A program made the translations under genes and the position numbers. From the UHGV virus genome UHGV-0134099: a stretch of DNA of 10,839 bases. One strand, 5' to 3'. Shown piece after piece: positions 1 through 10,839 of this stretch (positions within the stretch are counted from its first letter, which is position 1; each line of letters starts with the position of its first letter). Under the pieces are notes generated by a model. That model made no database searches, was not told where the DNA came from, and saw only the letters and a list, made by a program, of their open reading frames with translations. The stretch comes from a virus.

Positions 1-40
1 AAACAACTTTTTGTCTTTTTACCTTCCCGTTTCGCTCAAG
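1..40. other. Host chromosomal flank (bacterial B' side of the lambda attB locus)
   Basis: Reverse complement of 1-40 continues the remembered E. coli attB B' arm (cttgagcgaaacgggaaggtaaaaagac...). No ORF. Identity is from memory of the attB sequence, not a search. Confidence 0.6.
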
Positions 41-200
41 TTAGTATAAAAAAGCTGAACGTGAAACATTAAAAATCATTAATATCAATGCGTTATGATG
101 ATTTTTGTCTAAATAATAGACTACATAATACTGCAAAACACAGCATATGCAGTCACTATGAATCAACTACTTAGATGGCATTAGTGACCTGTAACAGAGC
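41..200. other. attR: Prophage attR (P-O-B' hybrid): 15-bp lambda-type core at 41-55 plus phage P arm with arm-type Int binding sites
   Basis: Positions 41-55 ttagtataaaaaagc are the reverse complement of the lambda core GCTTTTTTATACTAA. The left flank (31-40) matches the bacterial B' arm and the right flank (56 onward, ctgaacg...) matches the lambda P arm. Arm-type motifs cagtcactatg (150-160) and attagtgacct (180-190) match lambda P2/P1 Int arm sites. The intervening AT-rich sequence is diverged but collinear with the lambda P arm. Confidence 0.8.
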
Positions 201-241
201 ATTAGCGCAAGGTGATTTTTGTCTTCTTGCGCTAATTTTTT
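201..241 (+). terminator. sib: sib/tI-like intrinsic terminator and retroregulator hairpin in the P arm
   Basis: Perfect 11-bp inverted repeat attagcgcaag (201-211) / cttgcgctaat (226-236) followed by a T6 run (236-241) on the + strand. Position distal to the core on the P-arm side and orientation match lambda sib/tI. Confidence 0.6.
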
Positions 242-361
242 GTCAACATACTGGGTTATCTGAATTTACAACCATGCTCAGTATCTCGATAAGCGCAGAG
301 AAATGATGCAGTGGTGGGCGGACTGGCTGGACGAAAAGGCAAAATAAAGTGTTCCTAGCAA

Positions 362-1135
362 TTAGATGGGCTTGAATTTCTCCCCCCACGACTTTGCCTG
401 TTCTTTAAACCTGGCGCTGACATCACGAGACCATATTTTTCCGGCAACACTCCTGGCTGTTGCCGGAACGCCGCTAAGCATGCTAAATCTTTCGCACGAT
501 TTTGTGACGACAGCGCCTGCAGCAACTATAGAACACGCTCCAATGCTTACATTTTTTGTTATGCATACATTTTGTCCTATCCAGCAGTGTGGTTCTATAA
601 CTATAGGTTTCGATGGTGAATTAACTATTTCCATTGAGTCAATGTCATAAATAGGGTGGCCATCAGTCGCGCGGATTGTGATGCCAAAAGAAAACATGCA
701 GTCATCGCCAATAATTATTGACTTATTGGTATTTGAATTAAAACCCGTTGTCCATAAATTACTTGATGTTGTTGTGACGCCATTACCTACAAAAACGGCG
801 TCTCCACTTTCAACAACTGAAATATTCACGTTAATCAATTTACAAAAATTCCCAACATATGCCACCCCATCATTGCCATACATTTGGATCTTTGTGTTTC
901 TGCAAAGCGTCTTTTCACCTATGTAAACTCTTGAGTTCTTTGAGTTTCCCATAAATGTTACAGCAATACCATTTGGTATTTCAGAGCAACCATTAAGATA
1001 AATTAAATTGCTATCATCGCCATTAACGCCAAGCTCAGAGGGTTTATATGCAGTAAATGATTCCAAATTAAAATCAGAAATGCATGTTTTTATTATTTGG
1101 AAGTTATCTTCAATAACTTTGTTTGCCTGGCTCAC
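362..1135 (-). CDS. Hexapeptide-repeat (left-handed beta-helix) acetyltransferase, LacA/Mac/WcaF/NeuO-like; candidate lysogenic-conversion enzyme
   Basis: The C-terminal half carries tandem hexapeptide motifs (IIIGDDCMFSFGITIRATDGHPIY ... IVIEPHCWIGQNVCITKNVSIGACSIVAAGAVVTKS) with the catalytic-His context (TDGHP) typical of sugar O-acetyltransferases. The ORF track starts at a TTG at 1150; I prefer the GTG at 1135, which has an AGGAG Shine-Dalgarno 6 nt upstream (1142-1146). The gene is AT-rich compared with neighbouring phage genes. Confidence 0.8.
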   Translation of the reverse strand: MSQANKVIEDNFQIIKTCISDFNLESFTAYKPSELGVNGDDSNLIYLNGCSEIPNGIAVTFMGNSKNSRVYIGEKTLCRNTKIQMYGNDGVAYVGNFCKLINVNISVVESGDAVFVGNGVTTTSSNLWTTGFNSNTNKSIIIGDDCMFSFGITIRATDGHPIYDIDSMEIVNSPSKPIVIEPHCWIGQNVCITKNVSIGACSIVAAGAVVTKSCERFSMLSGVPATARSVAGKIWSRDVSARFKEQAKSWGEKFKPI

Positions 1136-1166
1136 AATTGACTCCTGCAATTATTTAAATAAACAT

Positions 1167-1188
1167 GCGCCTTTACAAAAAAAGGCGC
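1167..1188 (-). terminator. Hairpin downstream of the tailspike gene (possible weak terminator or 5'UTR structure of the acetyltransferase gene)
   Basis: 8-bp stem gcgccttt / aaaggcgc with a 6-nt loop. On the - strand it is followed by aTGTTTATTT, an imperfect U-tract. It lies between the tailspike stop and the acetyltransferase start. Confidence 0.35.
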
Positions 1189-1224
1189 AATGATTATATG
1201 ATGGTATATGCGTCTCCTTTCACA

Positions 1225-1253
1225 TTAATATCACAGTATGTCCGAGTTTTCAA
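1225..1253 (-). promoter_or_regulatory. Candidate sigma70 promoter for the acetyltransferase moron (-35 TTGAAA, 17-bp spacer, -10 TATTAA)
   Basis: On the - strand, TTGAAA (complement of 1248-1253) and TATTAA (complement of 1225-1230) are separated by 17 bp, immediately after the tailspike stop. Sequence inspection only. Confidence 0.3.
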
Positions 1254-1264
1254 AACATAGCTTC

Positions 1265-3352
1265 TTATGACAGATTTACGTTAACTCTGAGGTTAGCCCT
1301 GTCAGGGTTACTGTCTCCAGTATCAACGCGGTAACCAACCACAACATCGGTGGCGGTGACGTCCTTCACCCACGTCCGAACTGTTGACGTGGTTGGAGTA
1401 GACCTGTCATCTATCGTTAACTGTACTTGCCTGAAAGCTGGCGTATACAGAAATCGATGAGGGATGCTGACGGTCTTGTCTCCAGCTGTTGATATATCCA
1501 GGTTTGCGCTTAATCGCTGGCTTGTTGAATACCCAACGTTATTTACAGACGCAGAAATATTCCAGTTTTGACTCTTGCCAAGATCCGGTGAGTCGCCTGT
1601 GAATGGAACCTGCCCGGTTAACATTTCCATGGTCAGATTCACGTTTTCTGATGCAGGTTGCCCGGTAGAAACAAACCCAGTTGTGCAGCGATAAATAGAG
1701 CCGGTAATGTTGTTCCCGCGCAACGAGTTCGTTGGCGATACGCGCCTCAAACCAACTGTGCACGTTCTGGCGTTAAATATTACCGTCTGTCCTGCTCCAG
1801 CCAGATGCACCAAATCACCATTGCAGTTTTTGCCGGACACCTTCAACATGCCACCCACCGATGATGATGAGTACAGACCAATCCCTGAATACAGACTCCC
1901 TGCCTCAGTATCACCTGATGGTGCCGTTGAGTTGGAGTAGTTCAGGTCAACCTGGGCGTCATTTGTTACTACCACTGCTGTTGAGCCAACAACCCTGGCT
2001 ACCTGGGTTATCGTCCGTTTACAGGTGACACGGCAAACAAACCCGGCAGATGCCGCAATTGTAACACCATCAAAAGAGGCGTTTGGTAGCGAGTATGTCG
2101 GAATCGCACCCTTCCAGTTTGGATGTAACAGACTCAGGTTACGAATATCGAAAAATGCAGAGCCATAAGTATTGGCGCTAATGTTTACCTGCGACCTGGA
2201 GCTTTCAGCGATAATCCTACCGCCTTCTGATAATCGCACAGTGTTCCGTGTTCTGAACGCTGTACCAGACCAGGCAGCGTACGTGTGAACATCACCTATT
2301 TCAATATTTGCTCCATCAATAACAATACCGTCTACCTCTTCACCAGGGTACACAACTGATGTCGCCGCGGCTGTTTCTGCTGCCGGACGCGGCAGTATTC
2401 CGGCTCGTCCGATCCAAGCTTTTCTCAGCATCCCGTCGTTCGGCCCCTGGATGATAATTCCCTCCCCACCGAAATCACGACCAACAATACTGATGTCATA
2501 AACCGCAATTCTTGATGCGCTGTTTTCTGCACCAGGATTTTTGAACCACGCCCCCACGCCAGCAACGTTGTTTAGTAGAATATCGATAGTGAACCCGAAT
2601 CCCTGCACCTCAAGCCCATTGCCAGTGGTATTACCAAGTGTACCGGATGCAGAATTCCAGGCGCTGGTGAAGTAATTGCAATCGATGCCAAGTTTTGTTA
2701 TTTCGAAATTATTCGCATTTGCTATTACAGCAGTAGCATTTGTCCCTACTATTTGTTTTAAAGTAGTTTGCGTGTATCCAGATCCATTAATAATACATCC
2801 ATCTGGTATTGTTAGCGTGCTAAATAAATATATCCCAGGAGGTATGTGGACGTCCAGCGTATTTATTGCCGCTTGTAATGCGGATGTATCATCGTTTACT
2901 CCATCACCTTTTGCTCCGTAATACTGCGGTGTCTTTCTTAATGCTTCGTAAACACTTGACTCACCATAACCAATATTTTTAGAACCACCAGGTGAAGACA
3001 ATCGTTGCTCCAACTGATCAGGGTCATACTTCAGCACATTCGGGTAATAAAACTGCTGCACACCATACGCATCGTATACAGCCATAGAATGGCCTTGCAC
3101 AGTTACGAACTTGGCAATCTGCCCGTTATATACAGGGTAACCAGCAGCGTTAATGATGATTGGCTGTGCAACAGGAACGTGAGAACCGTCTTCGTTCTCC
3201 ACATAAACCTGGATCTGGTTTTCAGTATTTACCGGATCAGTGTCAATTTTTCCGATATAAATCTTTCCATTAGCTACGGCTTTAAAAGAACGAGCCATAG
3301 TGAAGAGTTGCGAAGGCATCGATACGATCACATTGGCTGTAATGTCTGTCAT
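1265..3352 (-). CDS. P22-type tailspike protein (gene 9 homolog): conserved head-binding N-domain, divergent receptor-binding beta-helix domain
   Basis: The N-terminus [13 protein letters not shown]...[20 protein letters not shown]...[15 protein letters not shown]...NVLKYDPDQ matches the P22/Sf6/HK620 tailspike head-binding domain and YDPDQ hinge as I remember them. The remaining roughly 580 aa are Gly/Ser/Thr/Asn-rich with repetitive beta-helix character and unlike the P22 endorhamnosidase. AGGAG-like Shine-Dalgarno (GGAG) 9 nt upstream of the ATG. Confidence 0.9.
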
Positions 3353-4651: not shown

Positions 4652-4906
4652 ATGGCTAGAGATGATCCGCACTTTAACTTCCGTATGCCTTTGGAAGTAA
4701 GAGAAAAATTGAAATTAAGAGCCGAGGCTAACGGAAGGTCAATGAACTCTGAGTTATTACAAATCGTTCAGGATGCACTATCAAAACCATCACCGATTAC
4801 AGGATATCGCGACGAAGCTGAACGCTTGGCTGATCAGCAGGCTGAGCAGTTCAAGGCTATAGTGTTTGAGACACTTAAAAAGATTTATGAAAAGGATTTG
4901 AAATGA
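4652..4906 (+). CDS. mnt: Mnt repressor (maintenance of lysogeny; represses Pant)
   Basis: MARDDPHFNFRMPLEVREKLKLRAEANGRSMNSELLQIVQDALSKPSP... matches P22 Mnt as remembered, with a ribbon-helix-helix N-terminus. GGAG Shine-Dalgarno 7 nt upstream. The stop codon overlaps the next gene's start (ATGA at 4903-4906). Confidence 0.95.
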   Translation: MARDDPHFNFRMPLEVREKLKLRAEANGRSMNSELLQIVQDALSKPSPITGYRDEAERLADQQAEQFKAIVFETLKKIYEKDLK

Positions 4907-5238
4907 GATTTCTATCACTGTTCTTGTTAGCAGTTGTCTCTTCTTCCAGTGCTGAGCTGCGCGAGCTTCAAACGGGTAATGACCTTCTTTACAACATTCA
5001 ACAAGGTAAAAAGGGTGATGATTTTTCATCGCTTTACATTACTGGATATTTGCGCGGAGTAACTGACTCATTGATACTAATTGGTTCTCTATGTCCTCCT
5101 GATGGCGTTGACATGTATCAATACACCGATATCGTTGAGAAATATCTAAACAAAAACCCAGAATCAAGAAATGAGAGTGCAGTTATACTAACCGCCCTAG
5201 CAGTAGGAAAAACATTTCCGTGCAAAAAGAATCAATAA
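4903..5238 (+). CDS. Small secreted (signal-peptide) protein, function unknown; translationally coupled to mnt
   Basis: N-terminal signal peptide MRFLSLFLLAVVSSSSA with a predicted cleavage site before ELRE. Mature protein is about 94 aa with two Cys (possible disulfide). AAGGA Shine-Dalgarno 6 nt upstream; ATG overlaps the mnt stop. It occupies the locus between gene 16 and immI where P22 has sieA. Confidence 0.7.
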   Translation: MRFLSLFLLAVVSSSSAELRELQTGNDLLYNIQQGKKGDDFSSLYITGYLRGVTDSLILIGSLCPPDGVDMYQYTDIVEKYLNKNPESRNESAVILTALAVGKTFPCKKNQ

Positions 5239-5253
5239 CAATAAGGGCTTAAA

Positions 5254-5643
5254 ATGAAATTGATTATAGCAATGGCTTTCCTTGTCTTCTCGTTTTCTGT
5301 CTCAGCAGAGTGCTGGGTCGTTGGAGATATGCACGGAATAAGCTATTCAGAACGAAATAATTTTCAACCGGAAGAAGATGGTTTTAGTGGAACATTCATC
5401 ATTAAGACAAACGGTGAAGATGCCAGTATCACATATTCTGGGACGGATGCGGGCGGCATGGCTTACAAAGCATTGTCTAAAAACTCCATCATTGGAATCG
5501 GCGCGAATGGCGAAACTCAACGAGTTATCGACTCATGGGTAATACATCCTAATGGAACAGTTTTAATGTCGAAAACCATTTCTGGTTATGGGAATATGGA
5601 TTCAACCAAAGCTTTTGTTGGAAAAGTAAAAAGAAAATGTTAA
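5254..5643 (+). CDS. Small secreted (signal-peptide) protein, function unknown; second gene of the mnt-coupled cassette
   Basis: Signal peptide MKLIIAMAFLVFSFSVSA followed by ECWVV. Mature protein is about 111 aa, Gly/Ser/Thr-rich, with Cys near both ends. AAGGG Shine-Dalgarno 6 nt upstream; 15-bp gap from the preceding gene. Confidence 0.7.
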   Translation: MKLIIAMAFLVFSFSVSAECWVVGDMHGISYSERNNFQPEEDGFSGTFIIKTNGEDASITYSGTDAGGMAYKALSKNSIIGIGANGETQRVIDSWVIHPNGTVLMSKTISGYGNMDSTKAFVGKVKRKC

Positions 5644-5667: not shown

Positions 5668-7509
5668 TTACTGCTGTGTTGCCTCAGTAGCAAGCAGCGG
5701 CCTGATGGCATTTGCAGCGTTACTCAACGCTCTTTCATAGGCTGGCGTTCCAGCTTTAGTGTTTGCCAGACGTAAGAGAGCATTCCTTGCTGCTTTGGAC
5801 TCATACAAACGCATCATTGCACCAAAGCCAGCCTCAAGCCCCATTGATACACCAAGAGTCGCAGTTGCGCCAATCGTCCTTATCCTGTTGGCTTGTGATT
5901 GCCCCGTCTGAGTTACTACATTTGCGGTGTCTGACCTTGCTGTTTGCTGTAGAACTTCATGAAGAGCATCAAGCTCTTTCATGTGCTTTCCAGAAAAAAT
6001 AGTGTTGTAAATTTCACCGCCTGACTGAGATTTCAGCTTATTAACTTCAGTGATGAACTTGGCTGGAGAGTCACCGGCCTTTTCCGCTATTTTGCTGACG
6101 TAAGCTGCACGCATAGCATCTTTCCCTTTATCATCCAGGGCGCTCCATATTCGTTTCACGTCAGATGGTTTTCTGCTTAATACAACGGTATTTATAAGTT
6201 CAGGACTGGCTTCACTGCTTGCCTTGTTGAGTTTGTTAGCAATGTTTTTATTAAGCACCTTATTATAAACGTTTGCATAATCGGAATTTGCTTTAAGGTA
6301 TTTTGCTGCGTCTGATGCACCGAGGTTTTTAGCAACTGCGTTACGAAGGTCTTTTGACATTGCATTCTCTACCATATTGGTAGCTGCTTTTGCCTGGTTG
6401 GGGAAGACCATAGCATCTCCCTGAACATTAGATCTAAATGCTGTTCTGTGCTGACGCAAGAGATCAAACGTAACATCCAAATCAGTTGCAGGGTTTGCTA
6501 ATTCTTCACGTAGGTTACGCAAGGATGTAAGCAGGCTTTGATTGGCAGACGTCCCAAGTCGTTCCTGTCTTGCGATCGCTGTATTCAGAGCATTCATGGT
6601 ATTTGTGGTATCAACTGCGGCATTACCCATTTTATTGGTGACGTCATTGATAACAGCGCCAGCGGCATCCTTCCTCCCCCTTAACGTGGTGGTCAGAGAT
6701 TTCACCACATCATCAGGGTTGTACTCACCAAAACGGTCAAAATAATTACTTACCAGCTTACTACGCGTTGCATATTGCTCCGCTCGCTTTGAGCCTGTCC
6801 CGAGCAAAGCCCCCTCGGCATCCTGAGTAAGGCCGCGAGTGAAAGCATTTTTCGGCGGGATAACATCAGATGTCATTGGTGTCACGCCCATCGATTCTGA
6901 TGTGGCAATTTTCTTCGCCACTTCTGGCGCAATATCACCTTTTATAGCCGTTATTCCACGCCCTATTCCCTTTGCTGCGGCGGAAAGAACACCCTGAGCG
7001 GCAAGGTTAACTCCGGCATTTTTAGCTGCATTTTGTGCGAAATCGCCTTTCTGATTTGCGGCCTCTGCCAATGATCCAATAGCCATGCTTCCTGCCGTTC
7101 CAACTCCTGGAACTAAATACCCACCAATTGTTTCACCGGCTTGTGCGTAGGGGTCTGTCGGTCTGTCTACTGGACGATAAACATCATCCAAAACCTTGGG
7201 TCCACCAAGCCCCTGGCTGATTGCATTAATCAGACTTGCGCCGCCCTGCAATACGTCAAATGGTATGTTTACCAGACCACGACCAGCCTGTTCTGCAATT
7301 TGCCCTGCACTTTGACCACCAGTGAGCCAATCGCCAGCTTGTTGCATCAATGATGGTTCTTCCCGTGTTGGTGCATTATTGGCCTGATTAACTGTTTGTT
7401 GCTGAACAGCCTGACCAGCAAAATACTCATCAATGGCGGTGCCAATATCTTCGGTGCTCGTACCATCAGGAAAGGTAAATGTCTTACCGTTTGCAGTTAC
7501 TTTCATCAT
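5668..7509 (-). CDS. Ejection (injection) protein gp16 homolog, P22-like
   Basis: 613 aa (P22 gp16 is about 609 aa). Gene order 7-20-16 upstream of immI matches P22. Ala/Gly/Gln-rich. Start overlaps the gp20 stop (ATGA, 7506-7509). Confidence 0.75.
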
Positions 7510-8921
7510 TCCACCGTAAATTGAATGCCTGATTTTGAGGTATATGATCCAACCTGATTCCGTGGTTCTCCTGAAGGTGTCGAATCTTGTGCTGGCGCTG
7601 CGTCAGTATTCATTGACATATACCGCTTAACGGCACTCCCCAATGATTCACCTTTTTTAACATCCAACCCCAATATCTGACCGCCATTACGCGATTGTCC
7701 TGGATTGCCATTCGCGCTCATCCACTCGGCTTTAAACTCATTAAACTGCGCGTTTCGTCGCTCAAGGTTTGCCATCGCATCAAGCCATCTTGCGACCGTC
7801 TCAGGGTTATCCATGTCAGTTGGTGCACCCTGCCGAACGATCTCAACGTCTTTATCCGTTGCGGGGCCGGGAGGTAGGAATTTAAGAACCTGACTGTTAA
7901 CAAGGGCATTTTGGCGGATGCGCAAATCACGCAATGTTGTATCGCTTCCGGTAAGTTTTGCGAACATGTTCTGTGCGTTACCGAACAAACCTGTCGTTGG
8001 TTTTTCTGCTCTGAACTGTTGAGCAAGCGCACTCATAGAATTGGCTGAGTTTGATGATGCTGTAGCATTGTTTACAGCCGTCTCGATGCCTTTTTCCATG
8101 TTTACTGACAGCTTAGGTGCTTCGCTAATCAACTGCTGAGCCTTTTCCTGTGCTTGCTGCATCTTAAACCCGAACTCTTGCTGATCCAGAGCCAAGCGTT
8201 GTGCTGCGATATTGTGTCCAGTCATTGCTGACTGATAGGAAAGGTTTTGCCCTCTCGCCTGAAGTGCTTCTCCAGCCTGATTGCTGCGGATTGTCTCTGC
8301 CAGCCTGCCTCGGTCAATTTCACGACCAGCCATCTTATCCTGAACAGCAAACGCCTTTTCTGGTCCAAGCGCACCGAGAGACATAGTAGTCAGCATGTGT
8401 GATAGCTGCTCTGGATTCTGGATACCTGTCTGAATCATCCAGTCAGCATTCGCCCCCACGCGATTTAACCCGTCCTTGTTGTCAGTAATGAATTTACTGT
8501 AGGCTTCCGGTCCCTGAGAAAGAGCGACGTTAGCCCTCATGGCTAACTCGCCCATATCGTTGCGTTGCTGCTCATTAAGACCGGAAAACGCCTGTTGTGC
8601 CTGTGCAACAAACGCTGGATTTTCCTGGGCAAACTTAAATAGTCCAGATGGATCACCAGAAGCCCATGCATCAGCGTGAACCTTATTGAACGCACTAATA
8701 GCTTTCTGTTGCTGTTCCTGATTGTAAATATCAGCAACTCCAGCCAGACCACGTAACGCGGTCAGACCAACGTTATTTGCACCTGAGCGAGCCAGTTCAT
8801 TGTTTTCGCGGATCAGGCCAAGCGTTGCGTTAATGTCGCTTGCCTTTGGCGCATTCTCATTTTGCGTACCGATGCCAGCAAGAAAACCACCAGAATTAAT
8901 ACCCTGTTGCCACGTAGCCAT
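7506..8921 (-). CDS. Ejection (injection) protein gp20 homolog, P22-like
   Basis: 471 aa, the same length as P22 gp20 as I recall. Sits between the gp7 and gp16 homologs. AAGGGG Shine-Dalgarno upstream of the ATG. Confidence 0.75.
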
Positions 8922-8930
8922 GATTACCCC

Positions 8931-9593
8931 TTAATAAAGCAGTGAACCAAGCAGACCGATACCAGCACCGATACCAGCACCCCACGGAGTTGATGAACCA
9001 ATTAATTTCGCAAGTCCAGCCCCAGCAATAGCACCAGACGCACCTCCGCCAATAGCAGATTGCATTGCTGATGGTCTGTTGGCATTTGCCGCTGCAAGAG
9101 CCGCACTTTGCTGCGAAATCTGACTCATGTTGTTGGCATATGTCTGCCCGGCGTTTGCCTGACCTTGCAGTGCGCCAAGACCAATGTTTGCCAGATTCTG
9201 GTAGTTGTTCATCTGACCAGACAGCCACTGCTGACCAAGCGTTGGTGCGATTGTTGCTAACTGATTACCGGTTGCGGTGGAACCCAATCCACCTGTTGCT
9301 TCCGCTGCCGCCAGACTCTGATAGCGAGCCTGACCAGCAAGATCTTTGTACTGCTGAGAGTTGTAATACTGGTTAAGTGCCTGACCTTGCCCTTCCAGAG
9401 ACGATAAGTTCTCGAGGCTGCCGACATACTTATCAGCCAGAGGAGTAAACGGCTTTAGGTTATTCATGATGGTGTTGAACTGCTGATTTTGCAGGTCTGC
9501 TGCATACTTCGTAAGCGTCGTCTCAGCACCGTCTGGCAGATCCTGATATTCCTGAGAGGATAGTGGACACCAAATATGGTGGACGCTATCCAT
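8931..9593 (-). CDS. Ejection protein gp7 homolog, 5' end interrupted by the IS66-family insertion (ORF as drawn is probably a truncated or chimeric gene)
   Basis: Gly/Ala/Gln-rich C-terminal region and position match P22 gp7. The ORF's ATG (9593) overlaps the IS tnpA start (9592) on the opposite strand, so the first codons are encoded by IS DNA. The native gp7 5' end and the upstream late genes must lie beyond the IS, outside the window. Confidence 0.6.
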   Translation of the reverse strand: MDSVHHIWCPLSSQEYQDLPDGAETTLTKYAADLQNQQFNTIMNNLKPFTPLADKYVGSLENLSSLEGQGQALNQYYNSQQYKDLAGQARYQSLAAAEATGGLGSTATGNQLATIAPTLGQQWLSGQMNNYQNLANIGLGALQGQANAGQTYANNMSQISQQSAALAAANANRPSAMQSAIGGGASGAIAGAGLAKLIGSSTPWGAGIGAGIGLLGSLLY

Positions 9594-9996
9594 GAAATCA
9601 TTAACCGCAGTGCGTAAAAAAAGCCCTAATTATCCCGTTGAGTTCAAAATCAAAATGGTTGAACTCTCGCATCGACCAGAGATCTCCGTAGCGCAACTCG
9701 CTCGTGAGCATGGGATCAACGATAATTTGCTGTTCAAGTGGCGCCAGTACTGGCGCGAAGGAAAACTACGTCCTCCTTCAACAACAGAAAACAACGTGCC
9801 TGAGCTGCTCCCGATAACACTTGATACCGAAGATGTTGTCCCTGCAACCTCCCCCCGGTCACAACCTGTAGCTGCTGCGGCACCTGAATCACTCAATATC
9901 AGCTGTGAAGTGACGTTCCGGCACGGATCACTCCGTCTGAATGGTGCCATCAGCGAAAATATCCTGAACCTGCTGATACGGGAGCTCAAACGTTGA
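9592..9996 (+). CDS. tnpA: IS66-family accessory protein TnpA (orf1)
   Basis: 134 aa with a helix-turn-helix-like segment (SVAQLAREHGINDNLLFKWRQYW) typical of IS66 orf1. Stop overlaps the tnpB start (TTGA). Confidence 0.8.
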   Translation: MKSLTAVRKKSPNYPVEFKIKMVELSHRPEISVAQLAREHGINDNLLFKWRQYWREGKLRPPSTTENNVPELLPITLDTEDVVPATSPRSQPVAAAAPESLNISCEVTFRHGSLRLNGAISENILNLLIRELKR

Positions 9997-10340
9997 TCCC
10001 ATTACCATCAGGGACCAAAATCTGGCTGGTTGCCGGCATTACCGACATGCGAAACGGCTTCAATGGTCTGGCCGCAAAGGTGCAGACGACGCTGAAAGAC
10101 GATCCGATGTCAGGTCACGTTTTTATCTTCCGTGGGCGTAATGGCAGTCAGGTAAAGCTCCTCTGGTCTACCGGCGATGGACTGTGTCTGCTGACCAAAC
10201 GGCTGGAGCGCGGCCGCTTCGCCTGGCCGTCAGCCCGGGATGGCAAAGTGTTCCTCACACCGGCACAGCTGGCGATGCTCCTTGAAGGTATCGACTGGCG
10301 GCAGCCTAAAAGACTGCTTACGTCACTGACTATGTTGTAG
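9993..10340 (+). CDS. tnpB: IS66-family accessory protein TnpB (orf2)
   Basis: MIPLPSGTKIWLVAGITDMRNGFNGLAAKVQ...FIFRGRNGSQVKLLW...GLCLLTKRLE matches the highly conserved IS66 Orf2 family. Apparent TTG start overlapping the tnpA stop. Confidence 0.85.
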   Translation: MIPLPSGTKIWLVAGITDMRNGFNGLAAKVQTTLKDDPMSGHVFIFRGRNGSQVKLLWSTGDGLCLLTKRLERGRFAWPSARDGKVFLTPAQLAMLLEGIDWRQPKRLLTSLTML

Positions 10341-10388
10341 GCCTCTTTATCCTGGTCGACGCTGAATGAGCCTGGTAATATACCCGGT

Positions 10389-10839
10389 ATGAACAGCTTA
10401 CTTCCTGACGATATCGATGAACTGAAACGTCTCCTTGCCGAACAGGAGGCGCTGAACCGTGCCCTTCTGGAAAAGCTGAACGAGCGTGAACGCGAAATAG
10501 ATCACCTGCAGGCGCAACTGGATAAGCTGCGCCGGATGAACTTCGGCAGCCGCTCCGAAAAAGTCTCCCGCCGTATCGCGCAGATGGAAGCCGACCTTAA
10601 GCAGTTGCAGAAAGAAAGCGATACCCTTACCGGCCGGGTGGATGACCCGGCCGTGCAGCGCCCGCTGCGGCAGACCCGTACCCGCAAACCGTTCCCTGAA
10701 TCACTTCCCCGTGACGAAAAACGGCTGCTGCCGGCAGCGTCATGCTGCCCGGAATGTGGTGGTGCGCTGAGTTACCTGGGTGAAGATGCCGCCGAACAGC
10801 TGGAGCTGATGCGCAGCGCCTTCCGGGTTATCCGGACAG
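10389..10839 (+). CDS. tnpC: IS66-family transposase TnpC (orf3), N-terminal 150 aa only; continues beyond the window
   Basis: Open frame from the ATG at 10389 to the window end: MNSLLPDDIDELKRLLAEQEALNRALLEKLNEREREIDHLQAQL (leucine-zipper-like coiled coil), then CCPECGG zinc-ribbon motif, typical of IS66 transposase N-termini. Absent from the ORF track because no stop is reached. Confidence 0.8.
   Translation, partial: MNSLLPDDIDELKRLLAEQEALNRALLEKLNEREREIDHLQAQLDKLRRMNFGSRSEKVSRRIAQMEADLKQLQKESDTLTGRVDDPAVQRPLRQTRTRKPFPESLPRDEKRLLPAASCCPECGGALSYLGEDAAEQLELMRSAFRVIRT

Follow-up and report, generated by a model that had tools for sequence, protein, structure and literature searches.

Phage-borne modification of surface polysaccharides

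Phage P22 carries gtrABC in the slot between its tailspike gene and the integrase gene or attachment site (att), and GtrABC glucosylates. The acetyltransferase OatWY of Neisseria meningitidis W/Y is encoded in a chromosomal capsule locus, not by a phage, and acts on sialic-acid-containing heteropolymers, while WbbJ and WcaF are soluble enzymes of the left-handed beta-helix (LbH) type, able to acetylate repeat units linked to undecaprenyl diphosphate (Und-PP). In E. coli, deletion of neuO raises killing by a K1 phage, against which NeuO protects K1 strains, and CUS-3-like prophages carrying neuO are also found at the pgl-bioA (att-lambda) site (PMC9659370). The stretch of viral DNA analysed here (UHGV virus genome UHGV-0134099; 10,839 nucleotides, hereafter the window) contains a gene for an acetyltransferase (AT) directly behind a tailspike gene. 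On sequence comparison and by analogy with NeuO, AT is proposed to be a receptor-modifying polysaccharide O-acetyltransferase of lysogenic conversion, with a probability of roughly 0.55.

An acetyltransferase gene inserted at the prophage end

The window matches, without a difference, the genome of E. coli 1368KP (NZ_CM173843.1), which was isolated from a human at Motol, Czech Republic. In this host of serogroup O86, a P22-like prophage of 41 kb occupies lambda attB, and the window covers its right end. Read along the minus strand, DNA-transfer genes are followed by the immI region (mnt/arc/ant), the tailspike gene and the AT gene (Table 1). Only 129 bp separate the tailspike end from the AT start, and the lambda-type attR lies beyond, which bears out the placement of the gene at the prophage terminus proposed by the earlier note. 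The slot is that in which neuO of CUS-3 and oac of Sf6 reside. The intact minus-strand open reading frame (ORF) spans 362-1150 from a TTG, with the GTG at 1135-1133 as the likely start; it is preceded by AGGAG (1146-1142) with a 6-nt spacer, in agreement with the Shine-Dalgarno sequence (SD) and GTG start proposed earlier, and NCBI's annotation program PGAP calls the same 257-aa protein (WP_052435017.1, 'acyltransferase').

The AT gene was also said to be richer in A+T than the flanking phage genes, and its GC content is indeed 39.0% (34.9% at third codon positions, GC3), against 46.9% in the tailspike gene and 46.2% in the remaining phage DNA. The extent of the inserted segment was set by comparison with AT-less P22-like prophages at argW, which carry a receptor-binding/enzymatic tailspike domain (RBD) 83% identical to that of the window. 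In these relatives, a spacer of 138 bp is all that lies between the tailspike stop and a convergent integrase gene; the window diverges from them at 1275 and rejoins them at 339. The insert of about 0.94 kb has a GC content of 37.9% versus 46% for phage DNA. The AT gene is a discrete insertion at the prophage end with a deviant base composition.

Family, predicted fold and active site

The earlier note had assigned the protein to the LacA/WcaF/NeuO class of hexapeptide acetyltransferases, an assignment that stands and can be narrowed to a NeuO/OatWY-like enzyme. The Pfam scan detected hexapeptide repeats only, Hexapep (PF00132) at 28.3 bits versus a cut-off of 27 (E=1.2e-6) and PF14602 at 26.8 bits, just below its cut-off of 27. 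Among solved structures searched with HMMER, NeuO (3jqy, E=2.2e-21) and OatWY (2wlc, E=3.1e-17) came first and the maltose/galactoside acetyltransferases next (1e-9), while the best match in deposited phage genomes was neuO of CUS-3, with 31% identity over 75% of the protein. Together with the recurrence of the exact protein in public assemblies, the Pfam and structure matches show that the ORF did not arise by chance.

AT could also be imagined as an acetyltransferase of small molecules or xenobiotics, similar to Maa, LacA, Vat or CatB and conferring a metabolic or resistance benefit, given that these enzymes belong to the same superfamily and give weak NCBIfam matches. However, the scores are 5- to 15-fold under the cut-offs (Maa 44/314, WbbJ 41.5/243, WcaF family 39.3/192, LacA 38.9/347, Vat 30.2/300), and the matches to Maa, WbbJ, WcaF, LacA, Vat and CatB cover only the C-terminal turns, i.e., the last 55-110 residues. 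Since NeuO and OatWY match better by about 10 orders of magnitude and the genomic contexts of AT are tailspikes and capsule loci, such a function is extremely improbable. Metabolic homologues in a conserved non-phage context, which would have spoken against the earlier proposal, were not found, the closest homologues lying behind phage tailspikes or in capsule loci.

AlphaFold2, given 22 homologues, modelled the AT monomer (pLDDT 88.8) as a left-handed beta-helix that carries helical elements at both termini, residues 44-235 forming a ladder of short strands. In a Foldseek search with this model, OatWY (top) and NeuO were the only matches at E<=1e-3. The named acyltransferases among the matches were all of the LbH type (OatWY, NeuO, LpxD, LpxA, AntD and GlmU), and the remaining matches were LbH-type carbonic-anhydrase-like proteins. 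By profile comparison and predicted structure, AT is thus a NeuO/OatWY-like member of the LbH acyltransferase family.

NeuO and OatWY have six active-site residues in common (Met134, His147, Trp171, Arg174, Trp220 and Arg222 in 3jqy numbering), and His147 and Trp171 are the catalytic residues of NeuO (PMC3046976). Five of the six are kept in AT (M147, H160, W185, W235 and R237), while Arg174 is replaced by Gln188. H160, within a DGHP motif, aligns to His147 of NeuO and W185 to Trp171. Three of these residues (H160, W185 and W235) do not vary across 22 family members, and the other two (M147 and R237) are at least 90% conserved; His160 and Trp185 are the predicted catalytic residues of AT. No signal peptide or convincing membrane segment was found in AT, in which the maximum 19-residue hydropathy (1.59) lies inside the beta-helix and the N-terminus is hydrophilic, and Pfam gave no match to the AT3 domain (PF01757). 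As a predicted acetyl-CoA user, AT must act in the cytoplasm.

Linkage of AT with a tailspike domain

The tailspike has no sequence match in the PDB beyond its head-binding domain. The model of the RBD (pLDDT 91.9) is a right-handed beta-helix, which resembles O-antigen and capsule depolymerases including phi297 gp61, LKA1 gp49 and Sf6. Judged by its sequence and predicted fold, the tailspike is not an endosialidase. The fold search was also considered as a guide to the substrate of the RBD, a use that was ruled out, the matches being generic beta-helix tailspikes and lyases only.

In an index of public assemblies, 144 blocks record the exact AT protein (carriers include GCA_023424705.1, GCA_043368495.1, GCA_018027895.1, GCA_900448915.1, GCA_016775035.1 and GCA_026211405.1), and neighbourhoods were obtained from 10 places listed. 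In all 10, AT follows the same RBD family. Seven of them are att-lambda prophages of the P22-like kind that differ in their immI regions, and the other three are GpJ-type siphovirus prophages, whose tail protein is lambda-J-like and whose tailspike carries a 'Tail_spike_N' adaptor. The podovirus- and siphovirus-type contexts are 100% identical over about 1.2 kb (window about 300-1500), i.e., the last 235 bp of the tailspike gene, the spacer, the AT gene and part of an integrase remnant, which moves with the RBD-AT cassette also into siphovirus-type prophages. The N-terminal adaptors of the two tailspikes are unrelated while the RBD proteins are 86% identical. Over the RBD (window 1265-2971 versus L019 4165-5871), blocks of 60-79% nucleotide identity alternate with blocks of 99-100%, a fine mosaic that suggests repeated recombination within the RBD; outside the identical stretch, the blocks range over 60-99%.

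A third backbone combines an 86%-identical RBD with a 99.1%-identical AT and, save for a single T, the same spacer (1136-1264), for which the siphovirus-type context shows 100% identity. NCBI names the tailspike of this backbone Enterobacter asburiae; of the three backbones, two come from E. coli and this one from an Enterobacter-linked contig. In this Enterobacter-linked copy, the integrase gene has its full length (L090 8041-9198), which shows the ancestral arrangement. The AT genes of the window and of this copy differ by seven nucleotides, four synonymous and three non-synonymous, too few for dN/dS. Enterobacter roggenkampii and E. asburiae also have annotated copies of AT, which depart from it by 1 and 3 residues. 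Hence RBD and AT have been co-transferred between phage types and genera, as seen from these alignments.

The linkage bears on whether AT acts on the receptor of the tailspike. AT might instead modify another glycan, such as colanic acid, enterobacterial common antigen, the core of the lipopolysaccharide (LPS) or a protein glycan, the tailspike-integrase junction being just the usual site of moron insertion and recombination in these phages. RBD relatives of 83-89% identity without AT carry the integrase gene directly, or umuDC-like genes, at this site; the copies of AT in E. coli and Enterobacter hardly differ, which would fit a cross-genus glycan; the widest PHROG match of the RBD is 'tail spike with colanic acid degradation activity' (E=7e-8); and one 43% homologue of AT adjoins flagellar genes. 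On the other hand, the exact AT is always found with one RBD family in the places listed, on three phage backbones, and distant family members again stand directly after tailspikes, while the PHROG match is weak and generic and the RBD fold search returned generic beta-helix tailspikes only. A glycan unrelated to the tailspike is hence quite improbable.

The RBD is found on at least four adaptor types. Shigella phage SF1-1 (PQ571307.1; 146 kb, virulent) carries a tailspike 81% identical to the window RBD (L073 4782-6659), and no acetyltransferase gene follows it. The 'Endo-alpha-sialidase' label of this tailspike looks wrong, being unsupported by sequence or predicted fold. Another adaptor variant (753-aa tailspike type, P0141) is present on four contigs (L079-L082), which end 55-151 bp past the tailspike stop; these ends may be assembly breaks at a repeated sequence.

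The wider acetyltransferase family

A word-indexed search returned only about 22 proteins at E<1e-35, the best with 50% identity, and an exhaustive profile search of 1.84 billion cluster representatives returned 285 at E<=1e-30; by these searches the AT family is real but small. Family members with 50% and 47% identity lie just downstream of phage tailspikes unrelated in sequence to that of the window. Others, from a metagenomic locus (L002), Enterobacter ludwigii (L028) and Pantoea (L029), are 50%, 40% and 38% identical and occupy region 2 of capsule loci of the group-2 type, with TagF-like polymerases and KpsC/S/D homologues as neighbours. A Vibrio member lies beside probable KpsU/KdsB-like (CMP-Kdo synthase) and KdsA genes, recognised from N-terminal sequences only, and more distant members occur in assorted environmental contexts.

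The AT genes have a GC content of 37-40% in eight of the nine loci checked, whatever the GC content of the locus, the Vibrio copy having 30.5% in a locus of 32.6%. Such a steadily low GC content is typical of serotype-specific sugar genes. A scan of IMG/VR with the family profile revealed no close relatives and only homologues at 28-37% identity, the nearer of which (L059-L069) are at the identity level expected for NeuO. Taken together, the homologues and their neighbours argue that AT belongs to a polysaccharide-tailoring enzyme family recruited repeatedly by temperate phages.

In L002, two tandem family paralogues of 271 and 261 aa (7107-8786), which are 38% and 50% identical to AT, hint at two acetylation sites on one capsule polymer. 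E. coli was ruled out as the organism of this locus, only an IS5 element having matched.

Host polysaccharides and the possible acceptor

The O-antigen cluster of 1368KP is O86. At the pheV locus of this strain (NZ_CM173843.1 788,793-798,645, L015), an integrase gene by tRNA-Phe is accompanied by IS26 and a truncated gsp operon, and no kps or neu genes were found there. The region has also lost yghO-glc-sslE-pppA-gspS, at an IS1 junction, and gspI-M, at an IS26 junction. In the related O86 strain 1217KP, gspC-M directly adjoins pheV in an intact region with no island. Since neither strain has kps at pheV, the lineage appears to be natively without a group 2/3 capsule. Furthermore, with an O86 host that lacks kps and neu genes at pheV and a tailspike that is not an endosialidase, the acceptor of AT is almost certainly not polysialic acid. 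In 1217KP, which comes from the same hospital, att-lambda is empty, ybhB being directly followed by ybhC (NZ_CM173879.1 3,183,675-3,185,586, L089); this strain is a natural O86 non-lysogen, not isogenic with 1368KP, as several bio proteins differ.

Megablast and blastn searches found RBD or AT in none of 5,425 other complete E. coli genomes, leaving 1368KP as the only carrier. It was therefore not feasible to deduce the receptor from the serotypes of RBD-carrying complete genomes, as only the window's own genome matched. O86 accounts for 80 of the 5,426 complete genomes, so that the chance of a sole carrier being O86 is about 1.5%, for a single observation. The O86 O-antigen unit is the leading guess for the acceptor in 1368KP, because the host is O86, has no kps genes at pheV and is the sole carrier among complete genomes. 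On its lipid carrier, this unit could be acetylated by a soluble LbH enzyme, in the manner of WbbJ and WcaF.

Classical O86 strains were typed K62, the old name of K2a/K2ab. A role of AT in the conversion of K2a to acetylated K2ab was considered and ruled out, because the difference between K2a and K2ab goes back to a frameshifted acetyltransferase gene of the kps locus itself (PMC13171606) and the host lineage has no kps genes at pheV.

Alternatively, AT and the tailspike could form a capsule-specific pair, in which AT, like NeuO, acetylates an ABC-transporter-dependent K antigen (group 2/3, kps-type) that the tailspike depolymerises, AT being a substrate-less orphan in 1368KP. Indeed, NeuO and OatWY act on capsule polymers, the 50%, 40% and 38% homologues lie in kps-like loci and the Vibrio homologue lies by the KpsU/KdsB-like and KdsA genes, and the pheV integrase and IS26-bounded deletion of 1368KP could have removed a kps island. 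This alternative is nevertheless unlikely: 1368KP has no kps at pheV and its lineage, as judged from 1217KP, looks natively kps-negative, yet the prophage integrated there, and the 5,425 complete genomes with neither RBD nor AT include many from encapsulated extraintestinal pathogenic E. coli (ExPEC). It is less likely still that AT is an out-of-locus acetyltransferase that separates K-serotype pairs such as K18/K22, as nothing ties the cassette to K18/K22 in particular; the reference assemblies of K18 (GCA_977946865 and GCA_977946875) and K22 (GCA_977947955) are absent among the 10 listed places carrying the exact AT.

Proposed mode of action and points against it

As a receptor-modifying enzyme, AT would belong to the NeuO/OatWY branch of the LbH family, use acetyl-CoA for O-acetylation as a soluble protein of the cytoplasm and, by analogy, work as a trimer in which His160 acts as general base and Trp185 comes from the neighbouring subunit. 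Its gene, placed between those of the tailspike and the integrase, would be a lysogenic-conversion 'moron' expressed from the prophage. AT would O-acetylate a surface polymer of the host, or an undecaprenyl-linked repeat unit, at the cytoplasmic membrane face. Its target would most likely be the glycan bound and cleaved by the adjacent tailspike. Lysogens would then become poorer receptors for phages of this tailspike specificity and be antigenically altered, as has been shown for NeuO with the K1 capsule. A bolder version, which is doubtful, would make AT the first soluble cytoplasmic LbH-type phage O-antigen-converting acetyltransferase, acting on the Und-PP-linked O86 repeat unit ahead of export and producing a hitherto unrecognised O-acetylated O86 subtype, and RBD-AT a two-gene 'recognise-and-mask' cassette of AT and its cognate domain; if true, podovirus and siphovirus prophages, and likewise E. 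coli and Enterobacter, would pass this cassette to each other as a whole.

Several observations, concerning the acceptor, the linkage and the expression of AT, weigh against the proposed role. The capsule polymers on which NeuO and OatWY act come from ABC-transporter pathways, the capsule-locus homologues of AT likewise lie in ABC-transporter-type loci while the host has no such locus at pheV, and we know of no NeuO/OatWY-type relative that acts on Wzy-dependent O units. The near-identical AT in Enterobacter argues against a strictly O86-specific target, unless the hosts share a glycan, and the published O86 structures are without O-acetyl groups (PMC7685785). In addition, RBDs of 89%, 83% and 53% identity occur without AT, which is therefore optional and linked to the RBD one way only, and the co-location of tailspike and AT could reflect a recombination hotspot. 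Finally, the 1368KP prophage is probably defective and unable to make infectious particles, given the insertion of an IS66-family element.

Regarding expression, the earlier note had proposed a promoter of the gene's own. Promoter-like hexamers are present in the spacer, TTGAAA (1253-1248) and TATTAA (1230-1225) with an upstream TG and a separation of 17 nt, detected in a relaxed scan, and a second pair, TTGTAA (1178-1173) and AATAAT (1155-1150), also separated by 17 nt. They do not rise above shuffled expectation, as a consensus scan of 1-1500 gave 2 promoter-like sites versus 4.4 +/- 2.1 in shuffles, and a terminator-like hairpin (1189-1166), followed by a T-rich run, sits between the TTGAAA/TATTAA site and the AT start codon. 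The AT promoter is hence a candidate only. The fold of the intergenic region, inspected for structured RNA, was not exceptional (z=-1.34).

It could be argued from the candidate promoter with a terminator-like hairpin upstream of the gene, from the IS66-family insertion and from the splitting of the tailspike by an IS3-family element in one assembly that AT is a silent or inactive passenger in a decaying prophage, the substitutions being too few to gauge selection. However, the ORF is intact, even where the tailspike is disrupted, the exact protein recurs in the 144 index blocks, the catalytic residues are invariant across the family and transcription with the late operon by antiterminated read-through is possible, which makes a mere passenger very unlikely.

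Attachment site and neighbouring genes

The host genes flanking attR are ybhB and bioA, while the opposite prophage end carries lambda-type xis and int (encoding excisionase and integrase) abutting ybhC. The integrase remnant ends 14 bp from the AT stop and is 95-96% identical to the 3′ ends of the integrase genes of CUS-3, phiv205-1 and phage Louie. The CUS-3/CPS-53-type integrase is of the argW type, and its remnant is here fused to the lambda-type attR; recombination between an argW-integrating phage and a lambda-att module has therefore produced the right end of the prophage.

Table 1. Coordinates of the features discussed, in window positions.
Feature	Position	Strand	Description
Lambda-type attR	1..200	.	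prophage end adjoining ybhB and bioA
attR parts	1-40; 41-55; 56 to about 200		bacterial B' arm (1-40); lambda att core GCTTTTTTATACTAA (41-55); phage (lambda) P arm (56 to about 200)
Integrase remnant, CUS-3/Louie/CPS-53-type	264..347	+	84 bp, last 27 codons and stop; convergent with AT
'Moron' insert	340..1275	-	extent set by comparison with AT-less relatives
AT coding sequence	362..1135	-	257 aa; GTG 1135-1133, TAA 364-362
Tailspike-AT intergenic region	1136..1264	-	33% GC; SD, terminator-like hairpin, promoter-like hexamers
Tailspike, 695 aa	1265..3352	-	P22 head-binding domain, aa 1-113 (Pfam Head_binding, E=1e-65)
Receptor-binding/enzymatic domain (RBD)	1265-3013 (about aa 114-695)	-	predicted right-handed beta-helix

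In one assembly carrying this tailspike (GCA_900448915.1, L022 3890-5195), a 1.3-kb IS3-family element with orfA (113 aa) and orfB (295 aa) splits the tailspike gene at the equivalent of window positions about 1938-1941, with a 4-bp overlap, and the AT gene downstream is still intact. At the far end of the window, an IS66-family element (tnpA, tnpB and an ISKpn24-like transposase gene; 9592-10839, plus strand) interrupts the ORF at 8931-9593 (minus strand), a P22 gp7-like DNA-transfer gene of which both halves are marked partial by PGAP. Between mnt and the gp16-like gene, two small plus-strand genes (4903-5238 and 5254-5643) are further morons, in the position of P22 sieA. One is annotated as Rap1a/Tai-family (type VI effector immunity-like) and the other encodes a 129-aa protein whose N-terminus resembles a signal peptide. 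In other carriers of this tailspike (L017, L018 and L024), the interval holds different cargo.

Significance

The principle of receptor modification is already known, and in this respect AT would not surprise a specialist. What is new is the existence of a second NeuO-like lineage without phase variation, the pairing of a NeuO-like enzyme with a non-sialidase tailspike and an RBD-AT unit that has moved across genera as well as between prophages of podovirus and siphovirus type. Prophage-borne acetylation alters serotype and phage susceptibility and is invisible to O- or K-locus typing. Acetyltransferases outside the capsule locus have been named as a gap in capsule typing (PMC13171606), and in a survey of Klebsiella prophages, 5-30% of the prophages per K locus encode putative acetyltransferases (PMC13123978). 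The locus described here offers a testable candidate beyond NeuO, a small soluble enzyme with a known receptor-binding partner, and the natural lysogen 1368KP together with the non-lysogen 1217KP, of the same serogroup and hospital, provides a pair for comparison. The co-movement of RBD and AT across morphotypes and genera is of use when host range and superinfection immunity are to be predicted from sequence, and is relevant to the choice of therapeutic phages and depolymerases, which acetylation could block.

Comparison with known systems

The closest described system is NeuO, the polysialic-acid (K1 capsule) O-acetyltransferase of CUS-3. In CUS-3, ant, the endosialidase tailspike gene and neuO on the minus strand are followed by the integrase gene on the plus strand, and the window displays ant, the tailspike gene and the AT gene on the minus strand followed by the integrase remnant on the plus strand, so that AT occupies the slot of neuO, on the same strand and with the same neighbours. 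The differences include the repeats, the N-terminus and the partner. neuO of CUS-3 contains 19 copies of the poly-psi heptanucleotide (AAGACTC) in its 5′ repeats, whereas the AT gene contains none, as the earlier note had remarked: no tandem repeats were found in window 1-1400 (score threshold 30), nor any phase-variation tracts in the AT gene, the longest homopolymer being a G6. Without poly-psi repeats, AT therefore has neither phase variation nor RLKTQDS heptads, unlike NeuO. Moreover, the N-terminal helical region of about 45 aa differs between the two proteins, and AT is paired with a beta-helix tailspike enzyme, in contrast to the endosialidase paired with NeuO in CUS-3.

OatWY is the second-best match of AT in sequence and the top match in structure, and has the catalytic set in common with AT. 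The acetyltransferases of the capsule loci L002, L028 and L029 are similar to AT over their full length, N-terminal region included, and have a similarly low GC content, but are chromosomal and flanked by kpsT and the kpsC/S/D homologues, whereas AT adjoins a tailspike. WcaF, WbbJ, LacA and Maa have the superfamily and the C-terminal acetyl-CoA-binding turns in common with AT, whose scores are far below their equivalog cut-offs.

Among phage converting enzymes, the gene for the O-antigen acetylase Oac of Sf6 lies in the same tailspike-integrase slot as AT, on the opposite strand. Oac is an integral-membrane acyltransferase-3 protein acting on the periplasmic side, whereas AT is predicted to be soluble and of the LbH type. 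Oac, GtrABC and AT would nonetheless have a presumed role in common, the modification of the receptor of the phage's own tailspike.

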